A stretch of DNA of 64,000 nucleotides from Dehalococcoidia bacterium (GTDB taxonomy: Bacteria; Chloroflexota; Dehalococcoidia; Bin125), in the NCBI GenBank assembly GCA_963663895.2, contig CAXXRD010000001.1, positions 608,001 to 672,000 of the forward strand, in the 5' to 3' direction. The position numbers were made by a program, and so were the translations under genes. The notes beneath the pieces were generated by a model that was not told where the DNA came from, did no database searches, and worked only from the letters and a program-made list of their open reading frames with translations. Positions 4,041 through 13,031 of this stretch are shown here, piece by piece. Position 1 is the stretch's first letter. Each line of letters begins with the position of its first letter.

Positions 4041-5301
4041 ATGACTGTACGCCCTCCCAACCGCCTCGCTCGCCGGCTCGGCCTCGGCGGCGCGACCGTG
4101 ATCGGTCTCGGATCGATGATGGACGCGGGGCATCTTCATCGCAGTGGGCCCTGCTGCCGCCGCCGTCGGCTCGGGGCTGCTGCTGGCGCTGGCGCTGGCC
4201 GCGGCGGTCGCCACATGCAACGCCACCGCCTCCGCCCGCCTCGCGGCTCGCTACCCGGCCTCGGGCGGCACCTACGTCTACGGCCGCGAGCGGCTCGGCA
4301 GCGGCTGGGGCTTCATCGCCGGCTGGGCCTTCCTGGCGGGGAAGATCGCGACGGCCGCCACCATTGCCCTCGCTTTCGCGGCGCACACGGCGCCAGGCGC
4401 CGAACGCCCGGTCGCCGTCGCGGTGGTGGCGCTCTTCACAGCAGTCAACCTGCTCGGGATCACCAAGACCGCCTGGGGCACCGGCGCACTCGTCGCGATC
4501 GTCCTGGCCATGCTGGCGATCACCGTCGGCGCCATGCTCGGCGGCGGCACCGTCACCAGCAGCCACCTCACGCCGTTCTGGCCGAGCGATCATCCCCTTG
4601 ATCTGTTGCGCGGGGCCGGCTTTCTCTTCTACGCCTTCGCCGGCTACGCACGGATCGCGACTCTCGGCGAGGAGGTCAGGCACCCGGCTCGCACCATTCC
4701 TCGCGCCATCGCGCTTGCCCTGGTGACCGTCCTCGGCGTCTACGCACTCGTCGCCATCAGCGCCATCCTCGCGGCCGGACCGCAGCAGCTTGCCGGCACG
4801 GACACGCCGATCCTCGCGGCCGTCGAGCTCGGCTCCTTGAACGAACTCGCCCCCGCCGTCCGCATCGGCGCCGCCATCGCAGCACTCAGCGTCCTCGTCG
4901 CCCTGCTCGCGGGCACCAGCCGCACCGTCTTCGCAATGGCGGCCAACGCAGACCTCCCGCCTCCTCTCGCCGCCGTCCAACCCCGAACGCAGGTCCCACA
5001 TCGCGCCGAGCTGCTGGTGGCGGCGCTGGTGATGATCGCGGTCGCCTTTTTCAACCTCCGCGAAGCGCTCGGCTTTGCCGCCTTCACGGTCCTCGCCTAT
5101 TACGCGATCACGAACCTATCCGCCTGGACCCTCAGCGGCCCGCGCTCCTTGCCGCTGCGCTTGGTCGCCACGCTCGGCCTCATCGGCTGCGGCGCCCTGG
5201 CGATCGCCCTCCCCACCGAATCCGTCATCAGCGGAGCAGCCGTCCTAGCGGTGGGCTTCGCGGTCTGGCTTATTCGGCGACGACTCTTAACCGATCGCTA
5301 A
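4041..5301 (+). pseudogene. APC-family amino acid permease with a +1 frameshift near codon 30 (or an assembly error)
   Basis: ATG 4041 gives MTVRPPNRLARRLGLGGATVIGLGSMMDAG. Removing one base from the GGGG run at 4127-4130 continues in frame as IFIAVGPAA...YPASGGTYVYG...FYAFAGY, the typical APC TM1 GSMIGAGIF and later motifs. Confidence 0.75.
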
Positions 5302-5343: not shown

Positions 5344-5772
5344 ATGAGCCAGCCCAACCGCGGCCTGCCACACTACCTCTTTATCTGCGTGCACAACGCC
5401 GGCCGGTCGCAGATGGCGGCCGCGATCTGCGACCGGCTCGCGGGCGGGCGGGCACGCGCCTCCTCCGCAGGAACGCAGCCCGCTCCGCACATCAACCCCA
5501 CCGTCGTCGAAGCACTGGCCGAGATCGGCATCGACATCTCCACCCGGCAACCGCAGCTCCTCAGCGACGACCTCGCCGCCGGCGCTCAGCGCGTCATCGC
5601 CATGGGTTGCTCCATTGAAGAGGCCTGTCCATCCATCCAGACCGACAAAAACTGGGACCTGCTCGACCCCGCCGGACGCTCGCTGGCCGAAGTCCGCGCC
5701 ATCCGCGACGAGATCTACCAGCGCGTCCAAGGGCTGCTTGAGCGGGCTGCTACTCCAAGCGGCAAGACGTGA
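5344..5772 (+). CDS. arsC: Arsenate reductase, LMW-PTP fold
   Basis: P-loop FICVHNAGRSQMA, SAGTQP, MGCSIEEACP (resolving Cys pair), WDLLDP, IRDEI. Confidence 0.85.
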   Translation: MSQPNRGLPHYLFICVHNAGRSQMAAAICDRLAGGRARASSAGTQPAPHINPTVVEALAEIGIDISTRQPQLLSDDLAAGAQRVIAMGCSIEEACPSIQTDKNWDLLDPAGRSLAEVRAIRDEIYQRVQGLLERAATPSGKT

Positions 5773-6473
5773 CCCCGCCGCTCACCCGCCCACTGATCGC
5801 CGAATTCTTCGGAACTTTCGGCTTGGTGTTCCTCGGCGCCGGCGCCGCCACCATTGATGCGCACACGGACGGATCGCTCGGACGCGTGGGGATCGGTGTC
5901 ACCTTCGGATTGGCCGTCGCGGCGATGATCCTCGCCTTCGGCCGCGTCAGCGGCGCCCATATCAATCCCGCCGTCACCCTCGGCCTGACGGCGGCAGGCC
6001 ACTTCCCCGTGCGTTCTCTCCCCCCCTACGTCATCGCGCAGCTCGCCGGAGCCCTGCTCGCCGCCGCCGCGCTCTGGGGATTGTTCCCGAGCCAACCCGG
6101 CCATCTCGGCGCGACACTCCCAACGGGCGATATCTGGCAATCGTTCGGGCTTGAGATCGTCCTGACCTTCGTGCTCATGTACGGAATCTTCGCCACGGCC
6201 GTCCAAGCAGGCGCTCCCCTCCCAGTGATCGCCGCGACCGCCGGCGGGATCGTCGGCCTCGAAGCCACCTTCGCCGGCGGTATCTCCGGCGCCTCGATGA
6301 ATCCCGCCCGCTCCTTCGGCCCCGCCGTCGCCGCCGCCGCCTGGGACGACCTCTGGATCTACTGGCTCGCTCCAGCACTCGGCGCCCTGGTCGCCGTGCC
6401 GCTCCACCGCCTGCTCCGCCCGACGCCAGCGTCCACCGTATCCGTCAACCACGGCTCCGATCATCAATGCTAA
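5769..6473 (+). CDS. MIP/aquaporin-family channel (probable arsenite efflux route)
   Basis: SGAHINPAVT and GASMNPARSFGP NPA motifs. GTGA overlap with arsC. Confidence 0.9.
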   Translation: MTPPLTRPLIAEFFGTFGLVFLGAGAATIDAHTDGSLGRVGIGVTFGLAVAAMILAFGRVSGAHINPAVTLGLTAAGHFPVRSLPPYVIAQLAGALLAAAALWGLFPSQPGHLGATLPTGDIWQSFGLEIVLTFVLMYGIFATAVQAGAPLPVIAATAGGIVGLEATFAGGISGASMNPARSFGPAVAAAAWDDLWIYWLAPALGALVAVPLHRLLRPTPASTVSVNHGSDHQC

Positions 6474-6578
6474 CGGCCTCTTTACGCGCTTTTAGCCCAC
6501 GCTTAAATCACCGACGGGCCATCCGGCATACCGTGAATGCACAAATAGCGCGCCGATGCATGCTCCAGAAAGGCCCTC

Positions 6579-6758
6579 TTGAAAACACTCTTCCGGCACC
6601 GCCCGCATCCACGCCGCCATGCCCCCCGTCGCTCCCATTGGTCCCCGCACATCATGAGCCAACTCACGGCGCTGTACGCCACCGCGCACCTCGACACCCT
6701 CGTCGGCACCCCGCACGACTTCAACCGCTGCAACTGCCCGCACTGTCGAAACGACTGA
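6579..6758 (+). CDS. Putative 59-aa His/Arg-rich small protein with C-terminal CxCxxC (below the ORF-track cutoff)
   Basis: AGAAAGG RBS, then TTG 6579: MKTLFRHRPHPRRHAPRRSHWSPHIMSQLTALYATAHLDTLVGTPHDFNRCNCPHCRND*. No homology recognised. Confidence 0.35.
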   Translation: MKTLFRHRPHPRRHAPRRSHWSPHIMSQLTALYATAHLDTLVGTPHDFNRCNCPHCRND

Positions 6759-6992
6759 GGCTCGCCACCGCAGTGCCCACTAGGCGCGGCCGGCTTCAAT
6801 CCCGCCTTGCGTCCTCATAACGGCTTCCCAATCCGTCCGCCGCAAGCGCCGACTCGGCCTGCCCTGCCAGCGGCCGCTTCCGTGGGTCGCGGGCCGGCGG
6901 CGGAGCCACCGCCGTGCTTCACCCCCGTGCCTCTCTCCGATCCGTCCAAGTCACCGCTCCCCCAATCCGTTCGGCAGGCTACGCTGCCCTCC

Positions 6993-8519
6993 GTGGAAGG
7001 CCGCATCGCCGTTATCGACATCGGTTCCAATTCCGGGCGCGTCGTCATCGTGCAGCCGGAAACCGGGGGGCATCTCGAAATCATTGACGAGCAGAGTGCT
7101 CCTCTGCGTCTCGCTCTCGAGGTCAGCCGCAGCGGAGAACTCAGCCCCGCCGCCATTGAGTGGACCCTGCACGCTCTCAAAGACTTCACGGCCGTCGCGC
7201 GCGGCGCGGGAGCGGTCCGCACCGTCGCCGTCGCGACCGCCGCCGTGCGCCGCGCCACGAACGGCGAGGCCTTCGTTCAGCGCCTTCGCGACGAACTCGA
7301 CTTAGACGTCACCCTCATCGACGCGCAAGAGGAAGCCCGCCTGGCCTTTCTCGGGGCGGTCTACGGCCTCCCGGCCGAGGACGGTTTCTTCGTCGACATC
7401 GGCGGCGGCAGTCTGCAGATCGTCCACTTTGCGAACCGCCAGCCCCTTGGCACCTGGTCCATCCCAATCGGCGCGCTCTTGCTCGCCGAGCGCTTCCTCA
7501 CGAGCGACCCGCCCACTACGAACGAACGGAAGGCCGCCGCCGATCATGTCAAGCAAGGGCTCGCCGAGGCGCGAATGCCCCCGCCCGACGGCGGCGCCCA
7601 AACCCTTGTGGGGACCGGCGGCACCATTCGCAACCTGGCCAAGATCGACCGGCGCCGGCGCGCCTATCCCATCGCCCGCCTCCACGGCTACCGCCTCCAA
7701 CGCCGCAATCTCCAGCGGATCGTCGCCAGCCTCGCAACGCAACCCCTCACGGATCGGGCCCAGACCCCAGGCTTGAACCCCACCCGCGCCGACTCGATCG
7801 TGGCCGGCGGCATCGCGCTTGACGCCGTGATGCGCTACCTGCGCACGGACCTGCTCACCGTCAGCGGCCAGGGCTTGCGCGAAGGGATCGCACGAGGGGC
7901 GGTCTTCGAGCATCTTCCCTCCGCCCACGCCGTCCGTGAAGCCTCGGTCGAGGCGCTCTGCCGCCGTTTCGCGGATGCCGACCGCGAGCGCGGCCAGCGG
8001 CGCGCGCAAGCCGCCAAGATCCTTCTCGATCACCTGCTCACCGACATCCCTTCTCCCATTGCCGAAGCCGTCCTCCTCGGGGCCCGCCTGCTCGACATCG
8101 GCAGCGTGATCGACTTCTACAACCGGCATAAGCTCACCGCTGAAATCGTCCTCCGCACGGACCTCAACGGCTTTTCGCACCGCGATCTCGCCCGCCTCGC
8201 CGCGGTGATCCGGATCGCAGAGAAGCCTGGGCTCAGCGCCAGCACCTATCGACCTCTGCTCGATCTGCGCGAAGACGAAACCCTGGAGCGGGCGGCGACT
8301 ATCCTGGCCCTAGCGGACGAGAGCGTGCGCCGCACGCCGCCAGCGCAACCGGTCCAGCTTGACTGCTGGAGCACCGGCCCGACCGTGCACCTGCGCTTCC
8401 CGGCGGGAGGAAATTGGCGCCCCGGAAAGATCGGCACGCGCTTCCTCCATGCCTTCGGACGCGCACTTGTGCTAGAAGAGTCCTTGGATGCCGCCAGCCG
8501 AGAGGGACACGAAACTTAA
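6993..8519 (+). CDS. ppx: Ppx/GppA exopolyphosphatase
   Basis: IAVIDIGSNS, AVATAAVR, EEARLAF, VDIGGGSLQI, GTGGTIR, GLREG, plus a C-terminal HD-like domain. GTG 6993 is preferred over the Pro-rich extension from 6807. Confidence 0.92.
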   Translation: MEGRIAVIDIGSNSGRVVIVQPETGGHLEIIDEQSAPLRLALEVSRSGELSPAAIEWTLHALKDFTAVARGAGAVRTVAVATAAVRRATNGEAFVQRLRDELDLDVTLIDAQEEARLAFLGAVYGLPAEDGFFVDIGGGSLQIVHFANRQPLGTWSIPIGALLLAERFLTSDPPTTNERKAAADHVKQGLAEARMPPPDGGAQTLVGTGGTIRNLAKIDRRRRAYPIARLHGYRLQRRNLQRIVASLATQPLTDRAQTPGLNPTRADSIVAGGIALDAVMRYLRTDLLTVSGQGLREGIARGAVFEHLPSAHAVREASVEALCRRFADADRERGQRRAQAAKILLDHLLTDIPSPIAEAVLLGARLLDIGSVIDFYNRHKLTAEIVLRTDLNGFSHRDLARLAAVIRIAEKPGLSASTYRPLLDLREDETLERAATILALADESVRRTPPAQPVQLDCWSTGPTVHLRFPAGGNWRPGKIGTRFLHAFGRALVLEESLDAASREGHET

Positions 8520-8532
8520 TGGCGCAAGATTA

Positions 8533-9294
8533 ATGGTGCAAGACAACTTCCAGCGCGGAGAATCCGGCTTTCCCGGCCGCCTCATCGTCGTCGAAGGGAT
8601 CGACGGCTCCGGGAAAAGCACCCAGATCGACCTACTCCAGAAATGGCTCCAGAGTCGAGGCTATCTCACGATCTTCACGGAGTGGAACTCCTCTCCCATC
8701 GTCAGAGCCACGACGCGCCGCGGGAAGCGGCGCCACCTGCTGACTCCCCTGTCCTTCAGCTTGATCCACTCCGCCGACTTCGCCAGTCGCGTGCATGCCC
8801 AGGTTCTGCCCGCCCTGCAGGCCGGCGCCATCGTGCTCGCCGACCGCTACGTCTACACGGCGTTCGCGCGCGACGCCGCGCGCGGGGTCAGCCGCCCCTG
8901 GCTGCGCCGGCTCTACTCTTTCGCCGCCGACCCCACGCTCGCCTTCTATTTCGACGTCCCCCTCGAAGAAGCCATCCAGCGCATCGTCCAGTCCCGCGCC
9001 GCCATCAAGTACTACGAGGCCGGCATGGACATGAACCTGCACGAGGACCTCTTCGAGTCGTTCCGCATTTTCCAAGGGCAGATCCTGAACGAGTACGAGC
9101 ACCTCGTCGAGGAGTTCCATCTCATTCGGATCGACGCCACCGAGCCGCTCGTCGACCAGCAACAGCGCGTGCGCGAGATCGTCGAGCCGCACCTTCAAGG
9201 AGTCGCCCGCATCCCCGATCGCGATATGCACGACTTCCTCCGCCAAGTGGGGTTGCAGGGCCGCTATATCCGGGAAGCGCAGCCAGCTCCATGA
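8533..9294 (+). CDS. Thymidylate-kinase-fold P-loop kinase, subunit 1 (intact Walker A); candidate polyphosphate kinase subunit
   Basis: LIVVEGIDGSGKSTQ, LADRYVYT, YYEAGMD. Lies directly downstream of ppx. Confidence 0.8.
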   Translation: MVQDNFQRGESGFPGRLIVVEGIDGSGKSTQIDLLQKWLQSRGYLTIFTEWNSSPIVRATTRRGKRRHLLTPLSFSLIHSADFASRVHAQVLPALQAGAIVLADRYVYTAFARDAARGVSRPWLRRLYSFAADPTLAFYFDVPLEEAIQRIVQSRAAIKYYEAGMDMNLHEDLFESFRIFQGQILNEYEHLVEEFHLIRIDATEPLVDQQQRVREIVEPHLQGVARIPDRDMHDFLRQVGLQGRYIREAQPAP

Positions 9295-10019
9295 CGCGCC
9301 TCGCCTTCTACGGTGACCCTCCTCCCAACGTCGAAGGGGCCGATCTCCCCGGCCGGCTCATCGTCCTCGAAGGGACGGACGGTGTCGGCCGCTCCACCCA
9401 TATCGCCCTGCTGAAGGAATGGCTCGAGGCCCACGGCCACGCCGTGATCGACACCGGCCTGCGCCGCTCCGATCTCGCCGGCCGCGGCATTGAGCGGGCC
9501 AAGCGAGGCAACACCCTGGACAGCCTCACCCTCAACCTCTTCTATGCAACCGATTTCCTCGACCGTCTCGAACACCAGATCATCCCCGCCCTCCGCGCCG
9601 GGATGGTCGCACTCGTGGACCGCTACATCTTCTCCCTGATCGTCCGCGCGGCCGTGCGCGGCGTGCCGCGCGACTGGATTCAAGATGTCTACGGCTTCGC
9701 CCTCATCCCGGACAAGGTCATCTACCTCGACATCGACATCGCCCAACTACAGCCGCGGGTCGTCGCCAGCCACGGATTCGATTACTGGGAATCCGGCCAG
9801 GACTACCTCCGCACCCCCGGCCTCTTTGACGGCTGGGTCACGTACCAAACCGCGCTGCTGGCGGAGTTCCGGCGGCTTGCGGATCAGCATGGCTTCACCG
9901 TCGTCAACGCGCGCGGCACCCTCGCCGAGGTCTTCCACGACCTCCAACACGAGGTTCGCCAAGTCGTCGAAGGGATGTCACGCCAGTCGGTCCTCCCCCC
10001 AGAACCGAACGACGCGTGA
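9291..10019 (+). CDS. Thymidylate-kinase-fold protein, subunit 2 (Walker A Lys->Arg)
   Basis: LIVLEGTDGVGRSTH, LVDRYIFS, YWESGQD. ATGA overlap with subunit 1 at 9291-9294. Confidence 0.8.
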   Translation: MTRLAFYGDPPPNVEGADLPGRLIVLEGTDGVGRSTHIALLKEWLEAHGHAVIDTGLRRSDLAGRGIERAKRGNTLDSLTLNLFYATDFLDRLEHQIIPALRAGMVALVDRYIFSLIVRAAVRGVPRDWIQDVYGFALIPDKVIYLDIDIAQLQPRVVASHGFDYWESGQDYLRTPGLFDGWVTYQTALLAEFRRLADQHGFTVVNARGTLAEVFHDLQHEVRQVVEGMSRQSVLPPEPNDA

Positions 10020-10053
10020 ACGGAGCCCGGCCACGCGCCACCCTCCACGAGTC

Positions 10054-10554
10054 CTAAGGTGCCAGTGCGCGCAGCACCCGAGGAGGGAGAAACTCCAAGA
10101 GTGCGCCGCGTCCCTCTGCCGGCGCGCCCCAGCACTGCACTCTTGCCACGCCGCCCTTCTTCCACTCCGCGGTCATTGCGCGCGCCGAGCCAGCGAGCAG
10201 ATACGCCAGCACCTCACTGAGCAACGGCTCATGTCCCACCACTCCCACGCTGCCTCGCCCGCGTTGCTCCGCGAGCACCCGCACAACACTGGCGGGATCC
10301 CCGATCGCCAATGCCTCGCAGGGCGTCGGCGGCGGCCAGCCCGCTTCGGCGTGCGCGATCTGCGCCGTCTCCCATGCCCGCTCATATGGACTCGAAAGGG
10401 AAACTTCCACCGCTGCCCCTAAGGCGCGCAAGCCCCGGGCCGCGGCTCGAAAGCGACGCCGTCCTCGATCCGTCAGCGGCCGGAGCGAATCATCCGGCCA
10501 GGCTTCCGCGTCGCGCTCGGCCGCGATGGCATGCCGGACCAAGTAGATCTCCAC
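10054..10554 (-). CDS. sixA: Phosphohistidine phosphatase SixA
   Basis: IYLVRHAIA, RPLTDRG, SSPYERAWETA, VVGHEP, KKGG. GTG start at 10554. Confidence 0.88.
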   Translation of the reverse strand: MEIYLVRHAIAAERDAEAWPDDSLRPLTDRGRRRFRAAARGLRALGAAVEVSLSSPYERAWETAQIAHAEAGWPPPTPCEALAIGDPASVVRVLAEQRGRGSVGVVGHEPLLSEVLAYLLAGSARAMTAEWKKGGVARVQCWGAPAEGRGALLEFLPPRVLRALAP

Positions 10555-10558
10555 GCGC

Positions 10559-12151
10559 TTAGGACTCCTGGAGTGCCGCCCGGAGCGTCCGCCACCGCTC
10601 CTCCCGCACCCGCGCATACGCCGACGGGAAAGCGAGACGCAGCTCCAGTATCTGCACCCGATATCGCTCCAGCACCTCGCCCATGGCGAGCACCGTCCGC
10701 GGCGGCAGCTCCGTACCTTCCTCCTCTGCGATCATCCGCAGCCGCCCTATCGCCACGGCAGCGTCTTGGTGCGCGCCCAGGACCTCTTGCAAGCGCCGCA
10801 GCGCCCGTGCCAGCCGCTTCGCCGCCCGGCCGTACTCGTCCGACATACACTCCAGGGCGTAGCGCAGTCGCTTCCCGCGGATCCGCAAGGCGTGATACGC
10901 GCTCGCAGGGGAATCCACAGCGATCGCGTCCCCTTGCCTGCGCACCGCGCGCAGATACGGGCGCAGCAAGCCCGGCAGCGCCTCACGCGCGGGCGTCAGC
11001 GCCGCCGCCGGCGCGCGCGCCGGCCCTTCTCGAACGAGATCCGTCATCCCCGCTCCGAGCCGCGCGTATCGCTCCGAGTTCAAGGCCTGCAGCATCCCCG
11101 CCCGCGCGACACGCCGCTCGGCTTCCAGTAACGGCCGGAGCGACTCGAAAGCCGCCCGTTCGTCGGCTTCCGCGGCCTCTTGCCACGCCTCCAACTGTTC
11201 CAGCTGCACATCCGTATCGCGTACCGCTCCCAACTCTGCGCCAAGCCAGCGCAGCTCCCGCCGCACAGCAGCGCTTTCACCCGGCAAGCACCGCTGAAAG
11301 AGACGCAACGCCGCGCGCAGGCGGCGCACCTGGACGCGCATGCGATGCAGCGCCTCAACGTCGTCGCCCAGACGCGTACCCGGCTCTTCCTCCAGCAGAG
11401 AGCGCCATTGCTCACGGAGAGCTGCGAATGCCACCTCTCCCACGGATCCCTCCGGCAGTCCCCGTCGGGGGGTCAGATCCCGGCCCACCAGCGGCCGCAG
11501 CCCGGCCAACGCCAACCCGAGCTCGTACTTCGACTGCGTCGCCGGCCGGATCGTGCAGTCCTCCTGCAGAGCGTCCACGAGAAGCCGCAGCGCTGCTTCA
11601 TGTCCCTCCGCCACCTCCACTTCCACCCGTTGCAGATGCCCGGATACGCGACGTCCTTTCACGAGCACCGCCGATGTGTCGAGCGCGATCTCCCCGGCAA
11701 CGGCGCCATTCGCCTCGACCGGGAGCGCTTGCCGCAGCATCCGGAGCTCGAACAAGGGCCGCAGGGAGCGCACGCCAAGTGCCCGCAGCCGCTCTCCCAC
11801 CGGGCCGGGGGCATCCAACAGCGTCCCCGGCTCCGCCGTCGTGACGCGTTCGCTGATCTCTACCCGACTCCTGAGCGCCCCGCTCGCCTCACCGAAGGAC
11901 TTCAACGTCGCCGTGATCCGTCCCTCGCTGCTACGCAGGCGCAACGCGTACCGGCTTCGGTACACCCGCCAATCGTCGCTGTCTAAATACAGGTCGCCGA
12001 TCTTCCGCTGGACCGGCGCCGCGGCGCGCAAGGGCGGCGGCAACGACGGCGACAGGCACCAGGCACGAACCGCGCTCAGGTCCGCCGCGTCGAATTGCCA
12101 CTCGACTTCGCGCTCGCCATCGTTTCGGATCCGCGGGGATACCTTCGTCAC
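10559..12151 (-). CDS. CYTH + CHAD domain protein (polyphosphate-binding)
   Basis: N-terminal CYTH (EREVEWQF, DLYLDSDD, ALRLR, EIALD, VEVE, SKYELGL). C-terminal CHAD (EALHRMRVQVRRLRAAL, LGAVRDTDV, HALRIRGKRLRY, LQEVLGAHQD). Confidence 0.9.
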   Translation of the reverse strand: MTKVSPRIRNDGEREVEWQFDAADLSAVRAWCLSPSLPPPLRAAAPVQRKIGDLYLDSDDWRVYRSRYALRLRSSEGRITATLKSFGEASGALRSRVEISERVTTAEPGTLLDAPGPVGERLRALGVRSLRPLFELRMLRQALPVEANGAVAGEIALDTSAVLVKGRRVSGHLQRVEVEVAEGHEAALRLLVDALQEDCTIRPATQSKYELGLALAGLRPLVGRDLTPRRGLPEGSVGEVAFAALREQWRSLLEEEPGTRLGDDVEALHRMRVQVRRLRAALRLFQRCLPGESAAVRRELRWLGAELGAVRDTDVQLEQLEAWQEAAEADERAAFESLRPLLEAERRVARAGMLQALNSERYARLGAGMTDLVREGPARAPAAALTPAREALPGLLRPYLRAVRRQGDAIAVDSPASAYHALRIRGKRLRYALECMSDEYGRAAKRLARALRRLQEVLGAHQDAAVAIGRLRMIAEEEGTELPPRTVLAMGEVLERYRVQILELRLAFPSAYARVREERWRTLRAALQES

Positions 12152-12287
12152 AAGACAGACAGCATAACGATCTTGTCGCTTGCCCGTGTCGCTCGTCCGC
12201 AGTCAACCGTTGATTGCCGGGAGATACAGCGACCGATCGAATCCGGCGGCTCGACCGAGAGACTCCACCTCGTTCGCCCGCAACGCC

Positions 12288-13031
12288 TCAGCCGTCGGCG
12301 GCCAGCACCTCGGCCTGTGCAAAGTCAGCTTGAGCCGCGTCCGCCTCGCCTAAGCGGTCGTGGATCTCACCGCGGGTCCGATAGGCCATCGCAAGGGCGG
12401 GATCCAGTCCGATCGCCTCGTTGGCGTCCGCAAGGGCTCGGGCAAGATCGTTCTTCGCAAGGTATGTCCTCGCACGCGCGACGAACGTCTCCGCGACATC
12501 ATTGTTCAGCAATATTGCGCGGTCAAAGTCGACAAGCGCGGCATCCATATCTCCGAGATCCAGATAGGCAAGCCCGCGAATCTGATGCACGACTGCCAGC
12601 ACAGCGAACGAACAGGGCGCGCGGTGAGGTGGCCCGTGGGCGATCCGAGGGCAGCGTGTGCCGACTGGCCCGATCGTGATCGCACGATCGGCATCCGCAA
12701 CCGCGCCCAGCGAATCCCCTTGGAGAAGGCGGATCTCGGCGCGGTTGCTGAAAGCAAACGGCAATCCGTCATCGGCCGCGATCGCACGATCGAAGTCCAC
12801 CAACGCCAACTCTATTCGATCCATCGATCGATAAAGCTCCCCGCGATCGTTATAGGCGAGCGCGAACTCGTCATTGCTGGCGATCGCATCGCTGAAGGCC
12901 ATGATCGCACCGGCGAAGTCTCCTTGCTTGCGCAATTCCACCCCGCGTTCGTAGTCGGCCTGGCCTGGGGTACCGCAGCCCACGAACAGAACCGCGAGTC
13001 CAGCTATCACAACGAGCGGTATGCGTCGCAT
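12288..13031 (-). CDS. TPR-repeat lipoprotein
   Basis: Signal peptide with lipobox LFVG-C, then several AYNDRG...ALVDFDRAI-type TPRs. Confidence 0.8.
   Translation of the reverse strand: MRRIPLVVIAGLAVLFVGCGTPGQADYERGVELRKQGDFAGAIMAFSDAIASNDEFALAYNDRGELYRSMDRIELALVDFDRAIAADDGLPFAFSNRAEIRLLQGDSLGAVADADRAITIGPVGTRCPRIAHGPPHRAPCSFAVLAVVHQIRGLAYLDLGDMDAALVDFDRAILLNNDVAETFVARARTYLAKNDLARALADANEAIGLDPALAMAYRTRGEIHDRLGEADAAQADFAQAEVLAADG

Follow-up and report, generated by a model that had tools for sequence, protein, structure and literature searches.

A heteromeric polyphosphate (polyP) kinase, PPK3, has been described in the archaeon Sulfolobus acidocaldarius, where it is composed of Saci_2019 (cPPK3) and Saci_2020 (rPPK3) (Hofmann et al., J Biol Chem 2026, PMC12995831). 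According to that paper, Saci_2019 produces polyP from ATP, and Saci_2020 is inactive alone and stimulates Saci_2019, with a maximum at a ratio of 1:1. Neither protein phosphorylates deoxythymidine monophosphate (dTMP), the real dTMP kinase being Saci_0893. The holoenzyme (SaPPK3) is an α2β2 complex that prefers the reaction polyP + ADP → ATP, its activity is reduced with GDP, and its genes are arranged in the operon sixA-ppx-cPPK3-rPPK3-CHAD (PMC12995831). Here, we analysed a window of 64,000 nucleotides from a Dehalococcoidia bacterium (GenBank assembly GCA_963663895.2, contig CAXXRD010000001.1, positions 608,001 to 672,000), in which an exopolyphosphatase gene, ppx, is followed by two genes encoding proteins of the thymidylate kinase (Tmk) fold, termed gene A and gene B. 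A preliminary description of this DNA had taken the two genes for a catalytic and a regulatory subunit of a polyP kinase and had named the Sulfolobus system as a precedent; that system proved to be real, and the proposed pair of subunits was supported by the relationships described below. We consider it very probable that ppx, A and B form an operon for an exopolyphosphatase and a two-subunit PPK3, with A as the catalytic subunit and B as an oligomerising activator.

Bacterial members of PPK3 have also been predicted previously. In PMC12995831 (Data S1 and Fig. 5/S19), bacterial dTMP kinase paralogs located beside PPX, SixA and CHAD genes fall in the same clade, are predicted to be PPK3 and are called "a few"; its Data S1, covering 47,545 genomes, lists a Chloroflexota bacterium and Pelolinea submarina, each with PPK1 0, PPK2 1 and PPK3 1. 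The gene-content profile of these genomes (no PPK1 found, one PPK2 and a PPK3 pair) and their phylum-level neighbourhood are as found here. The novelty implied by the preliminary description was therefore not sustained: the PPK3 system and its bacterial members are already in print, and the window shows nothing new in kind.

The locus resembles that of SaPPK3 in that ppx is immediately followed by two adjacent Tmk-fold paralogs, c before r, the cluster is made up of members of the same five protein families, and a heteromer is predicted. It differs in its bacterial host and high G+C content, in the location of sixA and CHAD on the opposite strand, in the fusion of CHAD to a CYTH domain, and in a genome that also carries PPK2. 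Like the c subunit, A has the P-loop lysine and the DRX arginine, lacks the EP (dTMP) motif and shares a lid insert; like the r subunit, B is without several of the lysine or arginine columns on which c-type rows agree in the alignment. With canonical Tmk, both proteins have in common the P-loop kinase fold, the DRY motif, the lid arginines and the dimer face, but they lack the EP motif, carry the extra lid insert and form a separate clade, and canonical Tmk coexists with the pair in relatives. Two-domain class II PPK2 (for example PA3455), an analogy cited in PMC12995831, likewise combines an active kinase module with an inactive paralogous oligomerisation module. However, A and B belong to another family, as neither matched the PPK2 profile PF03976 at E ≤ 0.01 (only a P-loop-length match to TIGR03708, 16.7 bits, was obtained), and they are encoded by two separate genes, although c and r are fused in some proteins elsewhere.

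Relation of genes A and B to cPPK3, rPPK3 and Tmk

The gene ppx (6993..8519, + strand) encodes an exopolyphosphatase of the Ppx/GppA family (Pfam Ppx-GppA 199.4 bits, Ppx-GppA_III 39 bits). Thirteen bases after its end lies gene A (8533..9294, +), encoding a cPPK3-like, putatively catalytic subunit of 253 amino acids (Pfam Thymidylate_kin, PF02223, 67.7 bits), and this is followed by gene B (9291..10019, +), encoding an rPPK3-like putative partner subunit of 242 amino acids (PF02223, 63.9 bits). The two genes share an ATGA overlap (9291..9294, +) made of the stop codon of A (TGA, 9292-9294) and the start codon of B (ATG, 9291-9293). Open reading frames (ORFs), sequence and Pfam matches all agreed with this arrangement, which had been pointed out in the preliminary description.

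Among all PDB sequences, the closest solved structure to both proteins was STK_15430 of Sulfurisphaera tokodaii (PDB 2plr, 4nzy, 4rzx and 5h70), which was deposited as "Probable thymidylate kinase" and is treated as a cPPK3 homolog in PMC12995831. Gene A matched it (2plr/5h70) with an E value of 5.9e-49, compared with 2.5e-17 for the best true Tmk, and with 44% identity over 203 residues; gene B matched it with 4.9e-30 and 35% identity, compared with 8e-10 for the best true Tmk. STK_15430, an archaeal protein of 213 amino acids, has the TEWNSS, DRY and lid insert that are also seen in A, and A is longer by a C-terminal tail of ~35 residues; no heteromer with an r subunit is among the solved structures. 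The nearest named homologs of A and B were from Dehalococcoidia/Chloroflexota metagenome-assembled genomes. For comparison with the characterised type, 12 Sulfolobaceae-type loci were retrieved by a genome search, and a second Tmk-fold gene followed c directly in all of them. One of these loci (L105) encodes a protein identical to the 2plr chain in 213/213 residues, and its order, Ppx-GppA, c, second Tmk-fold gene and a weak CHAD match, is that of the published operon.

Two phylogenetic trees were constructed. The first consisted of 78 rows, namely A and B of the window, the pairs of 32 of the 80 related loci described below (two loci per phylum, four each for Nitrososphaerota and Chloroflexota, with the other 48 left out), eight canonical Tmk of related genomes and four representatives; two of ten canonical tmk regions (L087 and L093) were left out, as no ORF in them was picked by the P-loop pattern. 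In this tree, a branch of 3.57 (support 100) separated canonical Tmk from the other rows, and the 33 A rows and the 33 B rows each occupied one side of a branch (99 each). The second tree, of 94 rows, added eight Sulfolobaceae-type pairs to this set, leaving out L104, L107, L111 and L114, the last of which has a TAA inside its c gene. Canonical Tmk of the eight related genomes was again separated, by a branch of 3.3 substitutions per site (100), so that both A and B branch outside canonical Tmk, which the preliminary description had suggested examining. A grouped with the eight Sulfolobaceae-type cPPK3 rows, including the one identical to 2plr, in a set of 44 rows (99), and the Sulfolobaceae-type r rows appeared as a long-branched group (2.16, 100) among the B lineages. 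On sequence grounds, gene A is clearly an ortholog of cPPK3, and gene B is a partner paralog of PPK3. As a separate observation, a third type of paralog is represented by two proteins (P0268 and P0181), in which NKY replaces DRY and the Walker lysine is intact; the two together (97) branch next to the cPPK3 clade and may be another type of partner subunit.

The motifs listed in the preliminary description were all read in the sequence. Gene A has GSGKST in Walker A, TEWNSS at the place of the canonical EP motif, DRY as its DRX motif and YYEAGMD in the lid insert; the corresponding motifs of gene B are GVGRST, with lysine changed to arginine, DTGLRR, DRY and DYWESGQD. In the alignment, EPGGT/EPRGT of related Tmk corresponds to EWNSS in A and GLRRS in B, and EPGGT is absent from A, B and both Sulfolobaceae-type subunits. 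These four have in common a lid insert of ~14 residues that includes the motif Y(Y/W)ExGxD, and canonical Tmk is without it. Both signatures are highly conserved: the Walker lysine and DR[YF] were present in 81/81 aligned A-type rows and [TS]EWNSS in 78/81, while B-type rows showed the Walker arginine in 78/79 (the odd row is truncated) and DR[YF] in 78/79. Among the closest homologs, 121/121 of A had the Walker lysine and DRY, and 120/120 of B had G-R-S-T in Walker A.

Lysine or arginine at A positions 66, 67, 155 and 159 occurred in fractions of 0.90-0.98 of the A-type and Sulfolobaceae-type c rows versus 0.00-0.30 of B; in c-type rows the fraction was 0.90 at position 67 and 0.95 at position 159, compared with 0.00 in B at both. 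A positively charged cleft, expected of c and not of r, was thus addressed through conservation in the alignment only. Lysine or arginine at A positions 105, 113, 117 and 150 was kept in all B rows. B also carries a conserved N-terminal extension, FYGxxPP, which is specific to B and its homologs and distinguishes it from SaPPK3. The Walker arginine of B is common to 6/8 aligned Sulfolobaceae-type rPPK3 rows, the other 2/8 having lysine; this change is not discussed in the text or legends of PMC12995831, as far as these are available, where "Walker" occurs once in the main text and, in the supplement, only in a legend, and "lysine" only in a reference. In contrast to the Sulfolobaceae-type r genes, which read DGY in 12/12 cases, in agreement with PMC12995831, B keeps DRY, and it was therefore filed as a PPK3 partner paralog in a variant form.

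Conserved pairing, gene neighbourhood and the predicted complex

Related loci were obtained by a search of species-representative genomes, and the best 80 among the matches listed (at least 597 stretches) were analysed. At least 516 stretches were confirmed by tblastn; this number cannot be read as one of PPK3 genomes, since canonical Tmk is also matched by one of the two patterns used. No Sulfolobaceae locus was present among the matches listed, and loci of that type came from the other search mentioned above. A was followed by B on the same strand in 78/80 loci, the remaining two being cut by contig ends, a pairing far beyond chance. The 80 loci were distributed over ~17 phyla: Acidobacteriota (20), Verrucomicrobiota (16), Nitrososphaerota (8), Chloroflexota (6), Nitrospirota (5) and about a dozen more. 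PPX was a neighbour in 51 of them, SixA in 32 and CHAD in 27; all three were found in 20 and any of the three in 54, so that homologous pairs are linked to these genes, as the preliminary description would require. When the analysis was restricted to the 50 loci that extend 3 kb or more upstream and 4 kb or more downstream, the counts were 33 for PPX, 22 for SixA, 19 for CHAD and 34 for any. In addition, a search of representative proteins yielded 314 clusters at 50% identity with E ≤ 1e-30. Taken with the ~17 phyla, this indicates that "a few bacteria", as worded in PMC12995831, understates the range.

In the window, the SixA and CHAD counterparts lie on the other strand, convergent with gene B, as had been described previously. 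The SixA-like histidine phosphatase gene (10054..10554, −; Pfam His_Phos_1 42.9 bits; PDB 1ujb SixA, E 1.1e-5) is separated from B by 34 bases between the stop codons. Against TIGR00249 (sixA) its product scored 61.7 bits, under the cut-off of 74.5. The longest ORF of this gene reaches 10617 and would overlap the next gene; the GTG at 10554, four bases past the stop codon of that gene, is the probable start. The next gene (10559..12151, −) encodes a CYTH-CHAD fusion of 530 amino acids, consisting of a triphosphate-tunnel domain and a polyP-binding CHAD domain (Pfam CHAD 203 bits, CYTH 42.8 bits). It matched the CHAD domains 6qv5 (E 3.6e-21), 6qv7 and 3e0s in PDB, and its residues 54-300 matched the inorganic triphosphatase 5a60 (E 3.8e-6). 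The layout of five genes is kept in both other genomes of the same genus. These five genes would make up a complete module for polyP synthesis, binding and degradation.

A complex of A and B was modelled from own alignments of 47 and 40 rows, following the heteromer modelling proposed in the preliminary description. The median score over three runs was 0.81, and the best of three controls scored 0.00. The mark for a pass was reached by 116/157 solved complexes and by 2/215 mismatched pairs, counts that hold only roughly here since own alignments were used. Contacts agreed by at least 84% between runs, and the partner had a pLDDT of at least 82. The modelled interface comprises residues 54-89 and 117-130 of A versus 61-94 and 126-136 of B, together with residues 8-13 of B, which belong to its specific N-terminal extension. 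It is pseudo-symmetric (A 77-89 and 122-130 versus B 79-94 and 126-136), like the dimer face of Tmk-type proteins. A and B are thus predicted by the model to form a hetero-oligomer.

Several proteins with other architectures were also observed. Proteins of 427-460 amino acids with two Thymidylate_kin stretches (P0123 and P0004, also P0006 and P0008 by length) are c-r fusions; only one possible PPK3 fusion is mentioned in PMC12995831. In proteins of 621-696 amino acids (P0126, P0133, P0140 and P0178), one (P0178) or two Tmk-fold stretches are followed by a C-terminal Ppx-GppA domain III/HD domain. Seven proteins of 771-1276 amino acids (P0175, P0207, P0208, P0214, P0216, P0238 and P0226) combine a cPPK3-like domain, 42-48% identical to A, with an MFS transporter and DUF2252/APH-like kinase domains, P0175 beginning with an SPX domain; this combination resembles an architecture for phosphate homeostasis. 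Three further proteins, P0170 (2575 amino acids), P0205 and P0242, join a cPPK3-like domain to "InPase" inorganic pyrophosphatase domains, and P0170 also has an ART-PolyVal ADP-ribosyltransferase domain, an architecture like that of polyvalent proteins of mobile elements.

Opposing evidence and alternative explanations

Several observations weigh against a two-subunit PPK3 with an activating B. The proposed function depends on homology, with 44% (A) and 32% (B) identity, to the one archaeal enzyme for which activity was measured. B reads DRY at the place where a replacement of the DRX arginine was expected of an rPPK3; since the loss of this arginine is the explanation of rPPK3 inactivity given in PMC12995831, B may not be dead. 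In the free 94-row tree, B and the Sulfolobaceae-type rPPK3 rows formed an unresolved grade, and in pairwise BLASTP B scored slightly higher against Sulfolobaceae-type cPPK3 (115 bits) than against its rPPK3 (97 bits). A tree constrained to unite the 33 B-type rows (including B of the window), the eight Sulfolobaceae-type rPPK3 and P0142 in one clade was 44.4 log-likelihood units above the free quick tree, with p = 0.942 in the approximately unbiased (AU) test; the grouping was thus not rejected, but as it was chosen with the tree already in view, the result indicates compatibility and is not a proof. The pass of the complex model may partly reflect solved Tmk homodimers because of its pseudo-symmetric interface. 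PPX, SixA and CHAD were not found nearby in 26/80 loci, and in six genomes of this family, representing five genera other than the present one (loci L096-L101 in G008, G015, G004, G007, G009 and G018) the pair stands without ppx, sixA or CHAD within ~5 kb, so the polyP neighbourhood is not constant even among close relatives. Furthermore, the genome has a PPK2. The earlier statement that ppk1 and ppk2 are lacking holds for the window, but one PPK2 is encoded on another contig (G000:C5:145489-146151, E 2.3e-83), PPK1 not being found in the assembly (2.37 Mb, 5 contigs, 91% complete); PPK3 is thus not needed to explain polyP metabolism in this organism. In favour of PPK3, on the other hand, 11 of 19 genomes of the same family carried the A-B pair, among which PPK1 was found in 0/11 and PPK2 in 3/11, all of this genus; neither was found in 8/11, and two family genomes with PPK1 lack the pair. 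This pattern is illustrative only, as the 19 genomes are interrelated.

That one or both genes are ordinary dTMP kinases located beside ppx by accident was regarded as highly improbable. Such an identity would agree with the match of both proteins to Pfam Thymidylate_kin, with the deposited name of the closest structure, and with the dTMP kinase equivalog TIGR00041, whose cut-off (83.25 bits) A just reaches with 83.5, B remaining below it with 64.6. It would also agree with the gene content of the assembly, in which A and B were the only Thymidylate_kin matches and canonical tmk was not found at 91% completeness, canonical Tmk of eight relatives matching only A and B, and weakly. However, the idea that A or B must be the real Tmk for want of a canonical one was rejected by synteny. 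The separate canonical tmk for which the preliminary description had proposed to look is found (E about 1e-45) besides the pair in both same-genus genomes, and its place can be located in the present assembly although the gene itself is missing there. In one of these genomes (G002), canonical tmk is flanked by two blocks whose counterparts here are the very contig ends C4:123138 and C2:808483, the gap being ~5.7 kb as measured on G002; contigs C4 and C2 are therefore neighbours, and the gene was almost certainly lost in the gap between them. Moreover, the EP motif of the dTMP site is missing in A and B, a branch of 3.3-3.6 substitutions per site separates them from the canonical Tmk of eight relatives, Saci_2019 and Saci_2020 showed no dTMP kinase activity in PMC12995831, and the A-B pairing and its PPX linkage are conserved across phyla.

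A polyP-linked, Tmk-derived phosphotransferase with a main reaction unlike that of SaPPK3, using AMP, GDP or another acceptor as class II/III PPK2 do, or a B that provides a second, weakly active or nucleotide-sensing site, appears unlikely but deserves more weight. B keeps DR[YF] in 78/79 rows as well as the basic residues corresponding to A positions 105, 113, 117 and 150, and its only constant P-loop change, lysine to arginine, is a conservative one. Identity to the characterised type is only 32-44%, and the PPK2 of the genus leaves room for a division of labour; the reduced activity of SaPPK3 with GDP, as given in PMC12995831, points in the same direction. Against these points, A agrees with the Sulfolobaceae-type cPPK3 in its P-loop, in DRY, in the lid insert and in the basic columns specific to A, and the genes of the operon belong to the five families known from the characterised one. 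The change of the Walker A lysine to arginine usually abolishes phosphotransfer in P-loop enzymes, which also counts against an active B. The third explanation, a relic or redundant locus without present function, with PPK2 covering polyP-nucleotide exchange, hardly seems credible. PPK2 is indeed present and the pair occurs in relatives of other genera with no ppx, sixA or CHAD close by, but both frames are intact, all catalytic motifs are present in A, and the same-genus orthologs (P0003 and P0273) are 94-95% identical and retain the layout of five genes. In addition, contigs of an RNA library (run X20, a coral metatranscriptome) matched ppx, A and the B/sixA junction in the pieces 8250-8471, 8874-9022 and 9809-10191 with 0-4 differing letters. 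These contigs are weak evidence, because such libraries may contain DNA; they give no strand, ends or co-transcription, and gaps in their coverage are uninformative.

Proposed mechanism, surroundings of the locus and significance

We therefore return to the two-subunit PPK3 as the preferred explanation and propose a model in which the activity, its direction, the stoichiometry and B's regulatory role would follow those of the Sulfolobus enzyme. A would be a P-loop kinase of the Tmk fold in which the dTMP pocket was lost and a basic surface acquired, and it would pass phosphate in either direction between ATP/ADP and a polyP chain end. By analogy with SaPPK3, the reaction would mostly proceed from polyP and ADP to ATP at low energy charge. 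B would be a non-catalytic or weakly catalytic paralog that binds A through the old Tmk dimer face and its own N-terminal extension, and would raise the activity of A by assembling the oligomer. Ppx would trim polyP, the CHAD domain would tether the CYTH triphosphatase-like domain to polyP, combining polyP binding with the hydrolysis of short chains, and SixA would be a phosphatase with a putative regulatory part.

A further, tentative idea that we hold to be rather doubtful concerns the partner subunit across most of the family, i.e., in bacteria and non-Sulfolobaceae archaea. This subunit might bind ATP/ADP without transferring phosphate and, by sensing the energy charge, set the direction in which A works, and the Sulfolobaceae rPPK3, with its DGY motif and long branch, would be derived and atypical. 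The retention of DRX and the lid arginines, with the Walker lysine to arginine replacement as the sole constant change, fits a partner that binds nucleotide and does not transfer phosphate.

The start of ppx was placed at the GTG at 6993, its open frame extending back to a TTG at 6807; its product scored 263 bits against TIGR03706 (exo_poly_only), under the cut-off of 307. For gene A, an alternative in-frame ATG exists at 8488. A scan of 6300-12600 detected one promoter-like site (0.4 expected) and two terminator-like sites (2.5 expected), which is the level of chance and gives no information on operon structure. Upstream of ppx are an amino-acid permease gene (4144-5301), a gene for an LMWPc low-molecular-weight phosphatase/ArsC-like protein (5344-5772, +; 64 bits) and an overlapping MIP channel gene (5769-6473, +; 170 bits), the latter two likely being an arsenic-handling pair. 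Near-identical DNA for 6500-12400 was found in 19 runs (X1-X19; 10 studies) at no fewer than half of the sampled words, several of the runs being labelled sponge metagenome, and a contig of run X7 has a 14-base deletion at 8524, between ppx and gene A. The sponge-labelled runs and the coral metatranscriptome pieces give a hint of habitat only. A preprint of the PPK3 study by Hofmann et al. reportedly appeared on bioRxiv in 2024 (10.1101/2024.08.28.610084).

Where these proteins have been given a name in the sources, it is dTMP kinase or thymidylate kinase, and genome-based pictures of polyP metabolism consequently miss a kinase in many uncultured bacteria. PPK3 would be the sole candidate polyP kinase in the 8 of 11 pair-bearing genomes of this family without a detected PPK1 or PPK2. 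The PPK3 family appears much wider than the "few bacteria" described in PMC12995831, and the differing signature of B bears on how PPK3 is regulated.

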